From: an uncultured Nitrosomonas sp.
GTDB taxonomy: Bacteria; Pseudomonadota; Gammaproteobacteria; Burkholderiales; Nitrosomonadaceae
Direction of reading: 5' to 3'
Assembly (NCBI GenBank): GCA_949281375.1
Contig: CASDLT010000010.1
Span: 119,182-183,181 of the forward strand
Length of the DNA: 64,000 nt
This document shows positions 1 to 6,448 of this stretch, piece after piece. The stretch's first letter is position 1. Each line of letters starts with the position of its first letter. The notes under the pieces were generated by a model. It was not told the origin of the DNA and searched no databases. It saw only the letters and a list, made by a program, of their open reading frames with translations. A program made the position numbers and the translations under genes.

Positions 1-184
1 GCAACGCGCACTGGCGGCCATCTCGCAGAAATCTGCTGTCGCTATTGAAGCTATTCTGCTCGACGATCCCCGCGCCGGCGTCGACGTGGACAAAATAGAA
101 GACCTGCGTCTGGCTGAATCGATACTCAACATCGAACCACGCACCTTGAAACCGGGCGATGCTCAACCGAGCAAACGCGGCTGA
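1..184 (+). CDS. 3' end of a MobA/GlmU-like NTP-transferase family protein (partial at window start)
   Basis: Frame from nt 2 reads QRALAAISQKSAVAIEAILLDDPRAGVDVDKIEDLRLAESIL...KRG* with stop at 182-184. The DVD-x2-DL C-terminal motif is typical of NTP transferases. Confidence 0.6.
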   Translation, partial: QRALAAISQKSAVAIEAILLDDPRAGVDVDKIEDLRLAESILNIEPRTLKPGDAQPSKRG

Positions 185-226
185 TCAATTCTGGAATGAC
201 CGCTGAAGCTGATCGAATAACGATGT

Positions 227-1300
227 ATGAAGCTGATTGAACGATATATCGCACGCGAAATACTGCTGCCTTTCACGGTAGTCATTCTGATACTGGTCGG
301 ATTGTTCGCCAGCTTCAGCAGCGCTCGCCTATTGGCAGGGGCAGTCACCGAAACGCTCGGCATCGCGGCGTTGCTTAAACTGGTATTGCTGAAAACGCTG
401 ATTGCATTGGAAGTGCTGATTCCTATTGCGTTGTATATCTCGGTCATCATGGGGCTGGGCAGACTGAACAAGGATCAGGAGCTCAACGTCATCCGCTCCG
501 CCGGCATCAGCGGCACGCGAATCGTACTCACGGTTCTGACGGTCGCTGTTCCGGTAGGATTCGTCAGTGGCATGCTGTCATCGTATGTGCGGCCGTGGGC
601 CTATGCCGAAAGTTATATTCTGGATGCCCAGGCGGAAGCCGAACTGAATACCAATCGCTTTCAGGCCGGGCGTTTCCATGGCAGTGATCGCACCGGCAGG
701 ATTGTTTACGTACGCAGCAAGAACGACGCCGAGAAACAGATGAATGGTATCTTTCACTATATCAAACGCCCAGAAGGCACCGAGATCGTGCTCGCCCAAC
801 ACGCGCAGCAAATTCAACCGACTGCGACCGATCACAGACCCCACATCCTGTTATCCGATGGCATGGTATATCGATTGAGCAACGCCGCCAGCATCGATGA
901 AGTCATCGAATTCAAAACCATGACTTATTTTATCGATACGGAATATGTCATGAATTACCGGCGCAAGGCTGCCGCAACCCGGACGCTGTGGGAATCCGCT
1001 CAGCCGCGCGACATCGCCGAACTGCAATGGCGTATCTCCCGCCCACTCGCCACTATCCTGCTGGCGCTGATCGCAGTGACGTTCATACGCATCTCACCAC
1101 GGCAGGATAAAAGCGATCGCACCTACCTGATCGCAGCACTGGTTTTTGCCGGTTATTACAATCTGGCAGGCCTGGCCAAAACCTGGGTGGAACAAGGCGT
1201 CATTGGCAGCATGCCGGGAGTATGGTGGCTCGAATTTCTCATGGCCTGCGGCCTCGCCGCCTACGCAATGGCCTTCAAGAAACGAATACAGGCGCGTTGA
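227..1300 (+). CDS. lptF: LptF/YjgP-family permease (paralog)
   Basis: 357 aa. N-terminal 'LIERYIAREILLPF', 'GLGRLNKDQELNVIRSAGIS' and 'AELQWRIS' motifs; 3+3 TM layout. Confidence 0.85.
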   Translation: MKLIERYIAREILLPFTVVILILVGLFASFSSARLLAGAVTETLGIAALLKLVLLKTLIALEVLIPIALYISVIMGLGRLNKDQELNVIRSAGISGTRIVLTVLTVAVPVGFVSGMLSSYVRPWAYAESYILDAQAEAELNTNRFQAGRFHGSDRTGRIVYVRSKNDAEKQMNGIFHYIKRPEGTEIVLAQHAQQIQPTATDHRPHILLSDGMVYRLSNAASIDEVIEFKTMTYFIDTEYVMNYRRKAAATRTLWESAQPRDIAELQWRISRPLATILLALIAVTFIRISPRQDKSDRTYLIAALVFAGYYNLAGLAKTWVEQGVIGSMPGVWWLEFLMACGLAAYAMAFKKRIQAR

Positions 1301-1302
1301 CC

Positions 1303-2364
1303 ATGGTCATTTATCGCTATATTGCTTCTCAGGTCCAGCTCGGTTTTATGATCGCCATTGCGATTCTGCTGCCACTATTCAGTTTTTTTGATTTGCTCGA
1401 TCAGCTCGATGATGTCGGTCGAGGCACCTATCGCGTCCCCGACGCCTTCTTGTACACCGCGCTGCTATTGCCCCGCAGGTTCATTCAAATCGCGCCTTTC
1501 GTCGCTTTGCTGGGTACTGTCATCGCACTGGGAAAATTAGCAGTGCATTCCGAGCTGATCGCCATGCGCGTCGCTGGCCTTTCTCCACTGCGCATCAGTC
1601 TGGCGCCACTCAGTATCGGAATAATTTTGTTGCTCAGCGTAGCCGCCCTGGAGCAATTCATCGCTCCTCAACTGCAACAGAAAGCCATTACACTGCGCGC
1701 TCTTGCGCTGGAGCAAAGCGCCGAACTCGGCAAGAATCTGGGTATCTGGACGCGTAACGAAAAAAACATTTTGCGCATCGGCCATATGCTGCACACTAAA
1801 AAGGCAATCGGTATCGAAATTCTGCAAATCGATCAGGACGGTTTCTTGCAGACCCACACGTTGGCCGAGTCAGCCGACATTATCAATGACGACATTTGGA
1901 AATTGAACAATGTCGTCATCCGCACATTTTCCGGCGATCACATTGCGGCACAGCATCTCGATACACTTGATTGGCCCTCGTTTCTGAATCCTGAAGATGT
2001 CTTGACGCTTACCAAACCACCGGAAAGTCTTTCTCCCGTCGAATTATTGCGGCATGTTGAGTTTCTGCGCAGCACCGGGCAGGATGCCGATGCTTATGAT
2101 CTGGCGTTATGGCGCAAAGTGGGTAGCGCGTTTATGACCATTGCGATGCTTTTGCTGTCCATTCCGTTTGTATTTGGATCGATCCGCACCGGCCTGAGCA
2201 ACAAACTGGTATTTGCCGCATTGATTGGGGTTGCGGTGTATCTGATCGATCAGATCCTCGCCAATGTCGGACTCTTATTGCATGTAAACCCTGCAGTCAT
2301 TGCACTGGCGCCAAGCTTGACGATGATCATCATCGCCAATGTGTGGTTGAGCCGAACTTTTTAA
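1303..2364 (+). CDS. lptG: LptG/YjgQ-family permease (paralog)
   Basis: Start moved to ATG 1303, 2 nt after the lptF stop. Motifs 'LGKLAVHSELIAMRVAGLS' and 'LLSIPFVFGSIR'. Confidence 0.85.
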   Translation: MVIYRYIASQVQLGFMIAIAILLPLFSFFDLLDQLDDVGRGTYRVPDAFLYTALLLPRRFIQIAPFVALLGTVIALGKLAVHSELIAMRVAGLSPLRISLAPLSIGIILLLSVAALEQFIAPQLQQKAITLRALALEQSAELGKNLGIWTRNEKNILRIGHMLHTKKAIGIEILQIDQDGFLQTHTLAESADIINDDIWKLNNVVIRTFSGDHIAAQHLDTLDWPSFLNPEDVLTLTKPPESLSPVELLRHVEFLRSTGQDADAYDLALWRKVGSAFMTIAMLLLSIPFVFGSIRTGLSNKLVFAALIGVAVYLIDQILANVGLLLHVNPAVIALAPSLTMIIIANVWLSRTF

Positions 2365-2488
2365 CAATCATCTGTTATTGTGACCATAAACTGTCTAAAA
2401 TCCCATCAGTGGGGCTATTCATCCATGCTTGGCCGTCTGACGGTTGAACAATCAATCCAGACCCGATCAATCCGCAACCATTCATCTC

Positions 2489-3727
2489 ATGTCGACTTCA
2501 ACATATATTTACATTTTCGGTGAAAATGACACCAAAATTTGGGGACTCACGGGTCGTGAACGCTTGCAGCGCATGCTCAGTACCAATCACGACATCAAGC
2601 TCGTCAATGCTGTCGACACGATTCCTGAGGCTGCGCCCGTTCTTTTCCTGAACGCCAATTTTCTGTTCGATGCACGGGTAATTACTGCAATGCTGGGTCT
2701 GGAAAAGAAAGTCGTATTGAATAGCAATGACGGTTGCCCCGCGGCGATACGCTCTGATGGCAATCAAGCGGTTCCTCTGCTGAGGAATCTGAACAACAAC
2801 GCCGATCATCATCATAAATTCGCATCGCTGACTCTTTCGCGGATCCATTTATCTGACTTGAACATCGATGTTCAGAAAAACCTCAAGAAGAAAGATCCGC
2901 CATATATTTTTCCGATCAGCGATGCCAATCGCTCAGTACTGGAAAATGAACTGTTCTCCGGCTCTTACAAAGGCGTCACCGATCTCGTCACCAAATGGGT
3001 CTGGCCTGTTCCGGCGTTCTGGACAACCCAGTTATGCGTGCGGCACGGCTGGCAACCCAACCATGTGACGTATGCAAGCGTCGTGTTTGCAGTATTGGCG
3101 GGCATGGCCTTCTGGTATGGATGGTTTGCAATCGGCCTGTTGATGGGCTGGTTCATGACTTTTCTGGACACCGTCGACGGCAAGCTGGCGCGCGTCACCG
3201 TCACATCAAGCAAATTGGGTGACATCCTCGATCACGGCCTGGATATCATTCATCCGCCACTCTGGTATCTGGCATGGGGAGCCGGCTTAGCCACTACTTC
3301 GACGCCCATCAGCGGCCTGGGCATATTGATGGTGCTGATGTTCATCGGTTATGTCGGCGGACGGATCTGTGAAGGTATTTTTCACTATTGGTTGGCGCAC
3401 TTCGACATGTTCATCTGGGAGAGGTGGGATTCATTCAACCGCCTCATTACCGCGCGACGCAATCCCAATCTCATCCTGCTGACGTATGGATGGCTCATCG
3501 ACCAGCCTGCGCTCGGACTCGTGTTGGTCGTGATCTGGCATTTGATCTCGACAAGCATTCTGGGTTGGCGTTTGCTCACAGGGTGGCGCATCAAGCAAAC
3601 GCAAGGCACAGTGAAATCATGGCTGGAGGACATCGATCCCGCTCGCGACCGCGATCAATGGGCGGTAAAAATTTTTACTCGCGCCCCGCTCAGTCTGAAC
3701 AACCCTTCTGCAATTTCCATTAACTGA
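2489..3727 (+). CDS. CDP-alcohol phosphatidyltransferase family protein with soluble N-terminal extension (CpgA-like)
   Basis: Signature D-x2-DG-x2-AR...G-x3-D-x3-D present as DTVDGKLARVTVTSSKLGDILDHGLD. ATG 2489 preferred over TTG 2444. Confidence 0.85.
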   Translation: MSTSTYIYIFGENDTKIWGLTGRERLQRMLSTNHDIKLVNAVDTIPEAAPVLFLNANFLFDARVITAMLGLEKKVVLNSNDGCPAAIRSDGNQAVPLLRNLNNNADHHHKFASLTLSRIHLSDLNIDVQKNLKKKDPPYIFPISDANRSVLENELFSGSYKGVTDLVTKWVWPVPAFWTTQLCVRHGWQPNHVTYASVVFAVLAGMAFWYGWFAIGLLMGWFMTFLDTVDGKLARVTVTSSKLGDILDHGLDIIHPPLWYLAWGAGLATTSTPISGLGILMVLMFIGYVGGRICEGIFHYWLAHFDMFIWERWDSFNRLITARRNPNLILLTYGWLIDQPALGLVLVVIWHLISTSILGWRLLTGWRIKQTQGTVKSWLEDIDPARDRDQWAVKIFTRAPLSLNNPSAISIN

Positions 3728-3740
3728 GTTTTTTGATCTG

Positions 3741-5735
3741 ATGACACTTCAAGCACGGATTGACCGTTTACAGGCTGGAACAGCCAAAGTTGGCTGCCTG
3801 CTCAATCCGTTGAGCGGTCAAGTTCGCAAGCGCATTCCAGTCATCCAGCACGCTCTGGACACGATTCCCGGCCTGCTGATCCAGCAGGCACATGATGCGG
3901 TCACATTTAAAACGGCCATTACTCAATTACTGAATGCAAACATTGATGTACTCGTCATCATCGCCGGGGATGGAACCACCCATGCGGTACTCGGCCATTT
4001 ATTCACGGCATTGCCCCCTGATGCATGGCCGTTGATAATGATCATCCCTGGCGGCACCACCAATATGACGCCACTGGATCTGGGAATGCGCGACACGCCT
4101 GAGCGGGCCATCGAACGCCTGCATGACTTCTTGCTTAATCCAATAGCGCCCAGTCTGATCAACCGACCCGCGCTGCGCATCGACCAAGCAGGCATCGGTT
4201 CCATATACGGTATGTTTTTTGCCGTCGGATTGGTTGCTCGCGGCGTGAAATTTTCGCGCAGTCCGGTCAAGCAGATCGGTATCACCGGGGGCATTTTCAC
4301 TGTTCTGATCATGCTGCGATCCCTGATTGGGCTGATCAGCAGCATGCTACTCGGCCGCCAGCAAACCGAATGGGCGCCGGTTAACCTGAGCCTGACGCAG
4401 GCTGATGGCAGCGTTCGACAAGGCACTTATCTGTTTGCACTGGTAAGTGCGCTGGATCGCCTGCTGCTCAACATACGCCCCTATTGGGGACAAGAACAGG
4501 CGCCGCTCCATGTCACGCTGGTCGATCAACCTCCCAGGCGCCTATGGCGTTCGTTATGGCCGCTATTGTCAGGGCAAGGCAAACATTTAAAAGAATCGGA
4601 GGGCTACCATAGCCATAACACCAATTCCCTGACGCTGCATTTTGATGACGAATTCATCGTGGATGGCGAATTATATCGTTCGAGCAGCCTCCAAGAACCG
4701 TTGCGAATCAGTGCAACACATCCCATAACTTTCTTAGTATTAAAGGACACTGTGAATATCATGACCCATTCCCTACCCAGTTCAGCCGGGCAATTACCCA
4801 TTCGTCTGCTGAACGAAGTTGCCTGGGAGAGCAACAAGCCAGTATCTCCCGACCTGTTTCTTCTGGTTGATTCTCTGATCATGCGATTTGGCGAATCGGT
4901 CGAAGCCGTGATGATGTATGGTTCCTGCCTGCACTCCGACATTAGTCTGGAGGAAGGGATCGTCGATTTATACGTCGTGGTCGACAGTTATTCCAAGGCC
5001 TACCAAAAACGTTACCTGGCCAATCTGAATACCTGGCTGGCGCCGAATGTGTTTTATCTGGAAATACCGCACCAGGGCAAGACCCTGCGCGCCAAATATG
5101 CAGTCATTTCCATCAGCGATTTCGAACAGGGAGCGCAAATCTGGTTTCATCCTTATATATGGGCGCGTTTTGCGCAACCGTCCCGGCTGCTCTACAGCCG
5201 CAACAATGCCGTCAAGGAGCGTATCAATACGTCATTGGCGCAGTGCGTCGTGACTTTTCTGAAATCCGGCGGTGCGGCATTGGAAGCAGGCGTTTACGAC
5301 GTCAAGGAAATCTGGACGCGCTGCTTGACTCTGACCTACGCCGCCGAGCTGCGCGCCGAAAAGGAATCACGCGCACACCACCTCGCGCTCGTCAACCTGA
5401 ATGCGCTCACCCGTCTGACTGAAGAAGCCAGTCCAATGCTGACCGGCATTCTGGAAAGACTGGAAAATGGCAAGTACCACTGCCTTACCGATCCCGAGAC
5501 ACAACGCAAAACCCTCTGGCTCTGGCGTTTGCGCCGTTGGCAAGGACGAGTGCTTTCCATTTTGCGCCTGGCCAAAGCGACGCTGACTTTCAACAATAGC
5601 GTCGACTACGCCGCCTGGAAAATAGAGCGCCATACCGGCGTACAGGTCAAAGTCACGCCGACCATGCGCCGCTACCCGATATTGTGGGGATTGACGATCG
5701 CATGGGAGCTTCTGCGCCAGGGTGTTCTGCGTTAG
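3741..5735 (+). CDS. Fusion of DAGK/sphingosine-ceramide kinase domain and Tam41-like cytidylyltransferase domain
   Basis: N-half has kinase motifs LLNPLSG, AGDGT, PGGTTN and VDGE. C-half from about M342 has YGSC...VDLYVVVD, KYAVIS and W-x2-PYIWARFAQP. One uninterrupted 664-aa ORF. Confidence 0.75.
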   Translation: MTLQARIDRLQAGTAKVGCLLNPLSGQVRKRIPVIQHALDTIPGLLIQQAHDAVTFKTAITQLLNANIDVLVIIAGDGTTHAVLGHLFTALPPDAWPLIMIIPGGTTNMTPLDLGMRDTPERAIERLHDFLLNPIAPSLINRPALRIDQAGIGSIYGMFFAVGLVARGVKFSRSPVKQIGITGGIFTVLIMLRSLIGLISSMLLGRQQTEWAPVNLSLTQADGSVRQGTYLFALVSALDRLLLNIRPYWGQEQAPLHVTLVDQPPRRLWRSLWPLLSGQGKHLKESEGYHSHNTNSLTLHFDDEFIVDGELYRSSSLQEPLRISATHPITFLVLKDTVNIMTHSLPSSAGQLPIRLLNEVAWESNKPVSPDLFLLVDSLIMRFGESVEAVMMYGSCLHSDISLEEGIVDLYVVVDSYSKAYQKRYLANLNTWLAPNVFYLEIPHQGKTLRAKYAVISISDFEQGAQIWFHPYIWARFAQPSRLLYSRNNAVKERINTSLAQCVVTFLKSGGAALEAGVYDVKEIWTRCLTLTYAAELRAEKESRAHHLALVNLNALTRLTEEASPMLTGILERLENGKYHCLTDPETQRKTLWLWRLRRWQGRVLSILRLAKATLTFNNSVDYAAWKIERHTGVQVKVTPTMRRYPILWGLTIAWELLRQGVLR

Positions 5736-5800: not shown

Positions 5801-6448
5801 ATGAAAGCTTTGAATCGTTTATTTTTATTGGTACCACTGTTGATCCTCGCCGCGTGCTCCACGATGTACCTCGAAGGTCTGGAAAAAGTCGGCATTCCGA
5901 AACGGGACGTGATGGTTTATCGCGTCGAAAAAGCGCGCGACACTCAGCAAGAAACCAAGGAACAATTCAAGTCAGCGCTTGAACAGTTCACCGCCGCCAC
6001 CCAATTCAGCGGAGGGGACCTGGAAGACACCTATAAACGGTTAAACGATGCTTATGAAGCCAGCGTCAGCAAAGCCGATGAAGTTAAAAGCCGCATCGCC
6101 GATATCGAAAACGTGTCTGACGCCTTATTTACAGAATGGAAGCAGGAAATCACTGAATATAGCAATGCGTCGATGAAGCAGAACAGTCAGAAAAAACTCG
6201 ATGCCACGCAGGCTCATTACCAGCAATTGATCAGATCGATGAAACAGGCTGAAGCCAAGATTCAACCGATTTTGACGGTATTTCATGATCAAGTCATGTA
6301 TCTCAAGCATAATTTGAATGCGCGCGCGATCGCTTCGCTGAAGGGAGAACTGGGCAACATCCAGTCCGATGTCTCCAATTTGATTGCTTCGATGGAAAAA
6401 TCGATCAATGAAGCCAATGCGTTCATCAGTACGATGGAAAATAAATGA
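5801..6448 (+). CDS. DUF2959-family lipoprotein
   Basis: Lipobox LAAC, then 'MYLEGLEKVGIPKRDVMVYRVEKARDTQQETKEQF'; coiled-coil body. Confidence 0.75.
   Translation: MKALNRLFLLVPLLILAACSTMYLEGLEKVGIPKRDVMVYRVEKARDTQQETKEQFKSALEQFTAATQFSGGDLEDTYKRLNDAYEASVSKADEVKSRIADIENVSDALFTEWKQEITEYSNASMKQNSQKKLDATQAHYQQLIRSMKQAEAKIQPILTVFHDQVMYLKHNLNARAIASLKGELGNIQSDVSNLIASMEKSINEANAFISTMENK

Follow-up and report, generated by a model that had tools for sequence, protein, structure and literature searches.

The outer leaflet of Sphingomonas carries glycosphingolipids. The anionic sphingolipid of Caulobacter is ceramide phosphoglycerate (CPG), for which CpgB is the ceramide kinase, CpgC is required for the first phosphoglycerate, and CpgA, CpgD and CC_1153 are required for the second (PMC11324152, PMC9393093, PMC12275187). 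Two permeases encoded in the same Caulobacter locus, LptF2 and LptG2, bind the single LptB and are required only in cells that make sphingolipid. In a 2026 preprint, these paralogues are proposed to borrow LptB from the lipopolysaccharide (LPS) machine (10.64898/2026.04.12.717747). We analysed a locus of this kind at the start of a 64,000-nucleotide stretch of DNA, the window, from an uncultured Nitrosomonas sp. (assembly GCA_949281375.1, contig CASDLT010000010.1, positions 119,182 to 183,181). The window corresponds to G000:C10:119182-183181, where G000 is this Nitrosomonas genome, and coordinates without a prefix are window positions.

Orthologues of the Caulobacter CPG genes have already been published for N. 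eutropha as Neut_1100-1106 (Olea-Ozuna et al. 2024; PMC11324152, Fig 7 and S2D Table). Neut_1100 is assigned as bCerS, Neut_1101 as CC_1153, Neut_1102 and Neut_1103 as LptF2 and LptG2, and Neut_1104, Neut_1105 and Neut_1106 as CpgA, CpgB and CpgC. Backbone genes are listed as Neut_0458-0461, and Neut_0267 and Neut_0268 as CC_1157 and CpgD (PMC11324152). These genes are paired with Caulobacter CC_1152-1165, each of which has been studied by genetics (PMC11324152, PMC9393093, PMC12275187). Synthesis of CPG and CPG2 is predicted for N. eutropha, and a Tam41 domain is mentioned in the supplement (PMC11324152).

The locus studied here encodes, in order, a bCerS-like protein, a CC_1153-like nucleoside triphosphate (NTP) transferase, LptF, LptG, a CpgA-like transferase, and a fusion of CpgB and CpgC. 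The initial annotation described five co-oriented, closely spaced genes, and all five are found on the + strand by open reading frame (ORF) listing and domain searches, with gaps of -4 to about 125 nt. This grouping stands with one amendment. The operon starts one gene earlier, at the bCerS-like ORF about 1.8 kb upstream of the window, and comprises seven coding units. By domain content and the published N. eutropha orthology, the locus corresponds to the Caulobacter cpg and sphingolipid-transport gene set, as first suggested.

From the gene content we consider it likely that this operon and an spt operon on contig C34 together make an anionic phosphosphingolipid of the Caulobacter CPG type. 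This lipid would be fed to the Lpt machine and, because lipid A cannot be made, would probably stand in for LPS as the principal anionic lipid in the outer leaflet. The initial annotation proposed a phosphorylated ceramide for the outer membrane; the gene set and the presence of serine palmitoyltransferase (SPT) agree with this proposal. The amendment concerns the role of the lipid, which more likely replaces LPS than supplements it, because lipid A synthesis genes are missing from the genome. A head group differing from that of Caulobacter is possible. By analogy we infer a Sphingomonas-like outer membrane without LPS.

The LptF/LptG pair and the lipid A pathway

A PF03739 search of this genome, which is 99.99% complete, finds only the LptF and LptG of the locus. 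A reading of the two as paralogues beside a housekeeping pair, as in Caulobacter, is not borne out by this search. N. europaea and Nitrosospira multiformis have one LptFG pair each, also within the locus, and exactly two PF03739 matches (one pair) are present in 39 of the 40 family genomes. The lone family genome with three matches (G087, genus g42) has an extra LptF-like gene (C1:210206-211237) near its CpgA gene. Two gammaproteobacterial metagenome-assembled genomes (MAGs) and one Nitrospirales genome encode a second pair in addition to the locus pair.

The locus permeases belong to a distinct lineage. The window LptF shares 21-29% identity with LptF from 39 other families of the same order, compared with 50-53% for the locus-borne LptF of gammaproteobacterial MAGs and 35-38% for that of Nitrospirales. 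For LptF and LptG as a pair, identity is 50-56% to the gammaproteobacterial locus-borne pairs and 21-31% to canonical pairs of the same order. We calculated a joint tree of 73 LptF and LptG sequences, anchored by the validated E. coli LptF and LptG and containing no pairs from Caulobacter, Sphingomonas or other Alphaproteobacteria. Nitrosomonadaceae group with the locus-borne gammaproteobacterial and Nitrospirales pairs in the LptF half (support 100) and the LptG half (support 99), and canonical Burkholderiales LptF fall into a clade of their own (support 99). An approximately unbiased (AU) test rejects Nitrosomonadaceae and canonical Burkholderiales LptF as one clade (log-likelihood difference 85.9, p 2.6e-10), for a group that was named after the identity pattern had been seen and a tree that comes from a quick search, with an unresolved deep backbone and flagged long branches. 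Both permeases pass the NCBIfam equivalog cut-offs (Table 1), which would mark them as ordinary LPS permeases. Both pairs of the two-pair genomes pass as well, so the cut-offs do not discriminate, and with the tree and the AU test this leads us to reject the assignment.

The genome appears to have lost lipid A synthesis. Models for LpxC, WaaA, LpxB and LpxD give no match in it and do match in control genomes, and tblastn with the LpxC-locus proteins of relatives recovers ftsZ and no LpxC. Relatives in the same order have lpxC directly after ftsZ. Here the genes that come after ftsZ lie on the other strand (G000:C34:109693-112575), and it looks as though lpxC has been lost cleanly at this conserved site. 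LpxC is found in 11 of 12 other families of the order and in none of 18 genus genomes or 40 family genomes (four genera, all at least 90% complete). We reject an assembly gap as the explanation, given this absence from all 40 family genomes, several of them closed, and from the place after ftsZ. The absence of lipid A genes from N. europaea and N. multiformis was noted by Opiyo et al. in 2010 and ascribed to genome reduction (PMC3087551).

The rest of the Lpt machine is kept, with an lptC-lptA-lptB operon, LptD and LptE all encoded in the genome. Copy number of the permeases varies together with lipid A synthesis. Across five locus-carrying genomes, LpxC is present in the three that have two LptFG pairs and absent from the two that have one. 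Such co-variation is as expected if LPS is handled by the canonical pair and sphingolipid by the pair of the locus.

Ceramide-backbone, head-group and fusion genes

Genes for a ceramide backbone are present on contig C34 (L017), where four adjacent genes encode SPT, an acyl carrier protein (ACP), an NAD-dependent epimerase/reductase that is CerR-like, and a fatty acyl-AMP ligase. The SPT scores 573.5 bits on the NF047599 betaproteobacterial SPT model (cut-off 500), and its neighbours have PP-binding, Epimerase and fatty acyl-AMP ligase (846.7 bits) domains. The initial annotation made the sphingolipid reading depend on SPT being in the genome, and with this operon the reading survives. It also suggested looking upstream of the window for spt, ACP, bCerS and cerR; the bCerS-like ORF is directly upstream, and spt, ACP and the reductase are on the other contig. 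SPT is found in 39 of 40 family genomes. The bCerS-like ORF is the positional orthologue, at 62% identity, of the first gene in the N. europaea locus, and its N. eutropha counterpart, Neut_1100, is 41% identical to CC_1154 (E 5e-105; PMC11324152).

The NTP-transferase of the locus might be taken for CpgD; here we assign it differently. The full protein is MobA-like (PF12804 NTP_transf_3 at 54.3 bits), with TTHA0179 (2dpw) as top PDB match (E 1.5e-18). By position it is orthologous to Neut_1101 of the published N. eutropha table, with conserved synteny, and we assign it to the CC_1153/CCNA_01211 type because the locus order is the same as in the published N. eutropha cluster. A LicC-like candidate for CpgD lies on contig C34 (L151:1132-1926, - strand). 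Its top PDB match is LicC (1jyk; E 2.8e-15), no NCBIfam equivalog matched it, and a PDB sequence search gave no CpgD structure.

The CpgA-like protein carries a motif, Dx2DGx2ARx8Gx3Dx3D (D227 to D252), that is invariant among its homologues. Its AlphaFold (AF2) model (pLDDT 82.8) matches AF2299 (4o6m) over the whole length, including the cytoplasmic N-domain (E 6.7e-12, TM-scores 0.58/0.70), and other fold matches are phosphatidylinositol-phosphate synthases and IPCT-DIPPS (4mnd). The model indicates a protein made of a cytoplasmic nucleotidyltransferase-like domain and a membrane domain. It resembles the archaeal AF2299 and IPCT-DIPPS in this two-domain architecture and in its intact catalytic motif, and differs from them in sequence (11-18% identity) and in its acceptor, presumed here to be a membrane sphingolipid.

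The last gene encodes a single polypeptide of 664 aa (3741-5735). In an alignment, stand-alone kinases cover residues 1-334 and stand-alone proteins of about 320 aa cover residues 355-664. The kinase domain has the AGDGT motif (residues 74-78) and a single hydrophobic segment (178-206). The C-terminal domain is assigned to the Tam41 family by profile and fold. A profile built from 17 homologues matches the Tam41 structures 6ig2/6ig4 (E 2.8e-5) and 7ecd, and the five top Foldseek matches of the AF2 model (pLDDT 89.5) are all Tam41 (6ig4, 6ig2, 7ecd), with E values of about 2e-9, TM-scores of 0.47-0.59 and probability 1.00. G45, S46 and D60 are invariant in alignment A2 of the Tam41-like domain. 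Compared with Tam41/Mmp37, the mitochondrial CDP-diacylglycerol synthase, the domain has the same fold, a nucleotidyltransferase joined to a helical domain, and matches over about 275 columns. The differences are 13-17% identity, a score below the Pfam cut-off, fusion to a lipid kinase, and a presumed substrate of ceramide-1-phosphate rather than phosphatidate.

The origin of the fusion can be read from its junction. In N. oligotropha, the kinase ends in TFLVL and a stop codon, followed by a short spacer and M; in the window, TFLVL is followed by K, DTVNI and M. Codon 335 (K) occupies the place of the N. oligotropha cpgB stop, and M341 is the former cpgC start. Loss of the cpgB stop codon, over an in-frame 18-nt spacer, gave rise to the fusion. 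The 664-aa form is also found in N. ureae, Nm84, JL21 and many metagenome assemblies, and because of this recurrence in many independent Nitrosomonas assemblies we reject a sequencing error. Two separate genes are kept in N. europaea, N. oligotropha, N. eutropha and most Nitrosospira. Such a fusion suggests that an intermediate is passed between the kinase and Tam41-like domains. A different fusion occurs in other assemblies, where a 684-aa protein (P0038) has a lipid kinase of this type joined to a fatty-acid desaturase domain (PF00487), giving CpgB-like kinases another partner.

These assignments can be arranged into a pathway. The kinase domain would phosphorylate ceramide to ceramide-1-phosphate, by homology with Caulobacter CpgB. 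The Tam41-like domain would then act on ceramide-1-phosphate, most simply in a reaction dependent on cytidine triphosphate that yields CDP-ceramide (compare Tam41, which makes CDP-diacylglycerol). CDP-glycerate or a similar donor would come from a nucleotidyltransferase, either the enzyme of the locus, the LicC-like CpgD candidate encoded elsewhere, or both, and the AF2299-like CpgA would move the phospho-head group onto the lipid. The LptB2-LptF-LptG-LptC complex would extract the finished lipid from the inner membrane, and LptA with LptD/E would deliver it to the outer leaflet. Bulk phospholipid synthesis is independent of the locus, because CdsA and three other CDP-alcohol transferases are encoded elsewhere in the genome.

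Conservation and alternative explanations

We scanned one genome per species for the locus and compared the best 80 of about 600 loci, none of them from Alphaproteobacteria. About 70 loci from other genomes in this set share the gene order and, because the same order recurs so often, the arrangement is not due to chance. The order bCerS-like, NTP-transferase, LptF, LptG, CpgA, CpgB, CpgC is seen in nearly all Nitrosomonas and Nitrosospira loci listed. It is identical in several gammaproteobacterial MAGs and in Nitrospirales, where an aas-cerR-acp operon divergently adjoins. The head-group and Lpt genes are thereby linked to ceramide synthesis without reliance on Caulobacter. In the GTDB order of the window, CpgA is confined to its own family (32 of 40 genomes) and is found in none of 59 other families. 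Three genomes of genus g42 (G081, G084, G096) have a single in-frame TGA within the CpgA match, which could reflect a pseudogene, a sequencing artefact or recoding.

Four loci from Nitrospirales, in the phylum Nitrospirota (L091, L094, L096, L097), carry the complete locus next to the ceramide operon, with the gene order unchanged, together with LpxC and a very divergent second LptFG pair. One of them has a second CpgA-like gene (45% identity) directly 3' of cpgC (L096:13374 onward). It is evident that the locus has passed from one phylum to another among nitrifiers or their neighbours.

An anionic sphingolipid might instead be added to an ordinary LPS outer membrane, with LptF and LptG as extra, dedicated paralogues. 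This is the Caulobacter arrangement, and it is also seen in the locus-bearing gammaproteobacterial MAGs and Nitrospirales, which have two LptFG pairs and LpxC. We consider it quite unlikely in Nitrosomonas, and for this genome it is already contradicted by the single LptFG pair and the failure to find LpxC, LpxB, LpxD or WaaA, a pattern that is family-wide and on record for N. europaea since 2010 (PMC3087551). The same genes could also be read as a glycerolipid route in which a diacylglycerol kinase is fused to a Tam41-type CDP-diacylglycerol synthase and works with a PgsA-like transferase, LptFG then exporting that lipid or some glycolipid. Public annotations do name a diacylglycerol kinase and PgsA, Tam41 is a phosphatidate cytidylyltransferase, and in vitro the substrates of Caulobacter CpgB include diacylglycerol (PMC11324152 S1 text). 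The Caulobacter orthologues nevertheless work on ceramide in vivo, a bCerS-like gene comes first in the operon, the operon lies head-to-head with a ceramide-backbone operon in other phyla, and SPT is nearly universal in the family. A glycerolipid route is unlikely, moreover, because the housekeeping routes are already served by CdsA and the three other CDP-alcohol transferases.

A further alternative concerns the permeases themselves. LptF and LptG could be fast-evolving vertical descendants of the canonical betaproteobacterial pair, grouped with the others by a long-branch or compositional artefact and placed in the locus by coincidence. The poorly resolved backbone and flagged long branches of the tree would allow this, as would the NCBIfam cut-offs, were these not passed by both pairs of two-pair genomes. 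We nevertheless regard the idea as very improbable. The clade is recovered independently in the two halves of the tree, the AU test rejects monophyly with canonical Burkholderiales LptF, the identity to gammaproteobacterial locus-borne pairs far exceeds that to same-order canonical pairs, and the flanking genes are alike across three phyla or classes.

Replacement of LPS by a phosphosphingolipid also has points that weigh against it. The C-terminal domain of the window fusion scores 17.2 bits on PF09139 Tam41_Mmp37, under the 24-bit cut-off (homologues P0042 and P0037 score 29.2 and 23.1 bits), and no Pfam or NCBIfam model matched the 378-aa bCerS-like ORF, even at a loose threshold. Genus g41 (G063, G066, G069, G073 and G077; 1.6-2.1 Mb) is without a CpgA match. 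A KdsB-like CMP-Kdo synthetase gene is retained beside an HpaI-type aldolase (L148:1102-1851, contig C4; NF009905 303.9 bits, cut-off 255), and a Kdo-containing glycoconjugate may therefore still be made. Orthology to cpgA-D, bcerS and lptF2/G2 is based on the published N. eutropha table and synteny, and that table gives just 24-33% identity for the Lpt proteins (PMC11324152). Deletion of cpgA in Caulobacter still yields CPG, which would call for an enzyme other than CpgA to consume CDP-ceramide. A literature search of incomplete coverage found no lipid data for any Nitrosomonas.

The proposal can be extended to the whole family. The betaproteobacterial ammonia oxidisers, with Nitrosomonas, Nitrosospira and their relatives, may have lost lipid A synthesis together with the canonical LptFG, kept LptA/B/C/D/E and adopted a sphingolipid-type LptFG as the sole extractor at the inner membrane, with an outer leaflet built from an anionic phosphosphingolipid. 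We see the case for this broader scenario as evenly balanced.

Locus features and relation to known systems

The features of the locus are collected in Table 1. The longest LptG ORF is listed at 1222-2364, and the most likely start is the ATG at 1303, 2 nt past the LptF stop. For the CpgA-like ORF, the start is at 2444 or 2489, and homologues begin at the equivalent of 2489. Proteins of the locus are 81-96% identical to those of Nitrosomonas sp. JL21, the nearest relative.

Table 1. Coordinates of the locus and its neighbouring genes.
Feature	Position	Strand	Evidence or remark
Subtilase with Kelch repeats and TIG domain, secreted-type, 845 aa	L001:10316-12853, upstream of window		Domain content
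bCerS-like ORF, 378 aa	C10:117378-118514, outside window	+	4-nt overlap with NTP-transferase gene
NTP-transferase 3' end (last 60 codons), CC_1153/CCNA_01211 type	2-184	+	Full gene 284 aa, G000:C10:118511-119365
LptF permease, sphingolipid-locus lineage	227-1300	+	PF03739 224.7 bits; TIGR04407 307.6 bits (cut-off 230)
LptG permease, sphingolipid-locus lineage	1303-2364	+	TIGR04408 323.7 bits (cut-off 240)
CpgA-like two-domain CDP-alcohol phosphotransferase	2489-3727	+	PF01066 36.9 bits
CpgB-like lipid (ceramide) kinase domain, residues 1-334 of fusion	3741-4742	+	PF00781 DAGK_cat 45.5 bits (cut-off 23.6), residues 19-128
Fusion linker KDTVNI	4743-4760	+	Junction comparison with L018, L023, L039, L036, L056
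CpgC-like Tam41-family nucleotidyltransferase domain, residues 341-664	4761-5735	+	Profile and fold
DUF2959 lipoprotein gene	5801-6448	+	PF11172 278.2 bits; lipobox LAAC

The upstream border of the operon is marked by a strong terminator-like hairpin (L001:12925-12946) that follows the subtilase-Kelch gene. This was the sole useful site from promoter and terminator scans, in which counts were at chance level. On the downstream side, the DUF2959 gene is directly 3' of cpgC in most Nitrosomonas loci and is not found there in Nitrosospira, gammaproteobacterial or Nitrospirales loci. Genus g41 has SPT in four of five genomes, a single LptFG pair and no LpxC, and may end at a simpler head group.

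For sphingolipid export to the outer membrane, Nitrosomonadaceae are a clean natural test case, because they combine the absence of the lipid A pathway and the canonical LptFG with one sphingolipid-type LptFG and an otherwise full Lpt machine. If the family-wide scenario is true, they would be a natural demonstration that the choice of Lpt substrate resides in LptF and LptG, with generic parts for the ATPase, periplasmic bridge and outer-membrane translocon. Confirmation of the lipid would mean that major soil and wastewater nitrifiers have an endotoxin-free outer membrane. It would also account for the lipid A genes reported missing since 2010, bear on the sensitivity of nitrifiers to polymyxin-type compounds, and make the kinase-Tam41 fusion a single polypeptide for working out the CpgC reaction. 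Our literature search, which was incomplete in coverage, found no paper linking the sphingolipid genes of Nitrosomonas with its missing lipid A genes, and none joining the 2010 lipid A observation, the 2024 N. eutropha orthologues and the 2026 LptF2/G2 work. The locus proteins are unmentioned in the main text of a proteomics paper on ammonia-oxidizing bacteria.

The closest characterised system is Caulobacter CCNA_01210-01226. Both systems have a MobA/CofC-like NTP-transferase, LptF and LptG homologues, a PF01066 transferase with a cytoplasmic N-domain, a DAGK-type ceramide kinase and a Tam41-like protein. The 378-aa ORF is a candidate counterpart of the Caulobacter bCerS acyltransferase, and SPT, ACP, the reductase and an acyl-ACP synthetase are also present in the Nitrosomonas genome. 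The Nitrosomonas genes differ in being spread over three genomic regions and in having the kinase and Tam41-like protein as one polypeptide, and lptC2, CC_1166, CC_1167 and CC_1158 are without counterparts, as published for N. eutropha. In addition, the Nitrosomonas LptFG is the only pair in a host without a lipid A pathway, and its lipid product is a predicted one.

Sphingomonas-type outer membranes without LPS are similar in another respect, combining the absence of LpxC, LpxB and WaaA with a complete Lpt machine and a sphingolipid pathway. The lineage is different here (Betaproteobacteria, placed in Burkholderiales in GTDB), and the head group is predicted to be a phospho-acid, not a glycosyl group. 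Sphingomonas lipids are chemically characterised, whereas the Nitrosomonas lipid is a prediction from genes. The precedent already published is the Neut_1100-1106 cluster of N. eutropha C91, which comes from the same family and has the same gene order and predicted function. It differs in that cpgB and cpgC are unfused, as they also are in N. europaea. Its authors took Neut_1102 and Neut_1103 as counterparts of LptF2 and LptG2, and neither remarked that they are the sole pair nor linked the locus to the missing lipid A genes. The locus described here is therefore of a kind that is already published, and what sets it apart is that its LptFG is the sole pair in a lipid-A-less organism and that its kinase and Tam41-like protein are fused.

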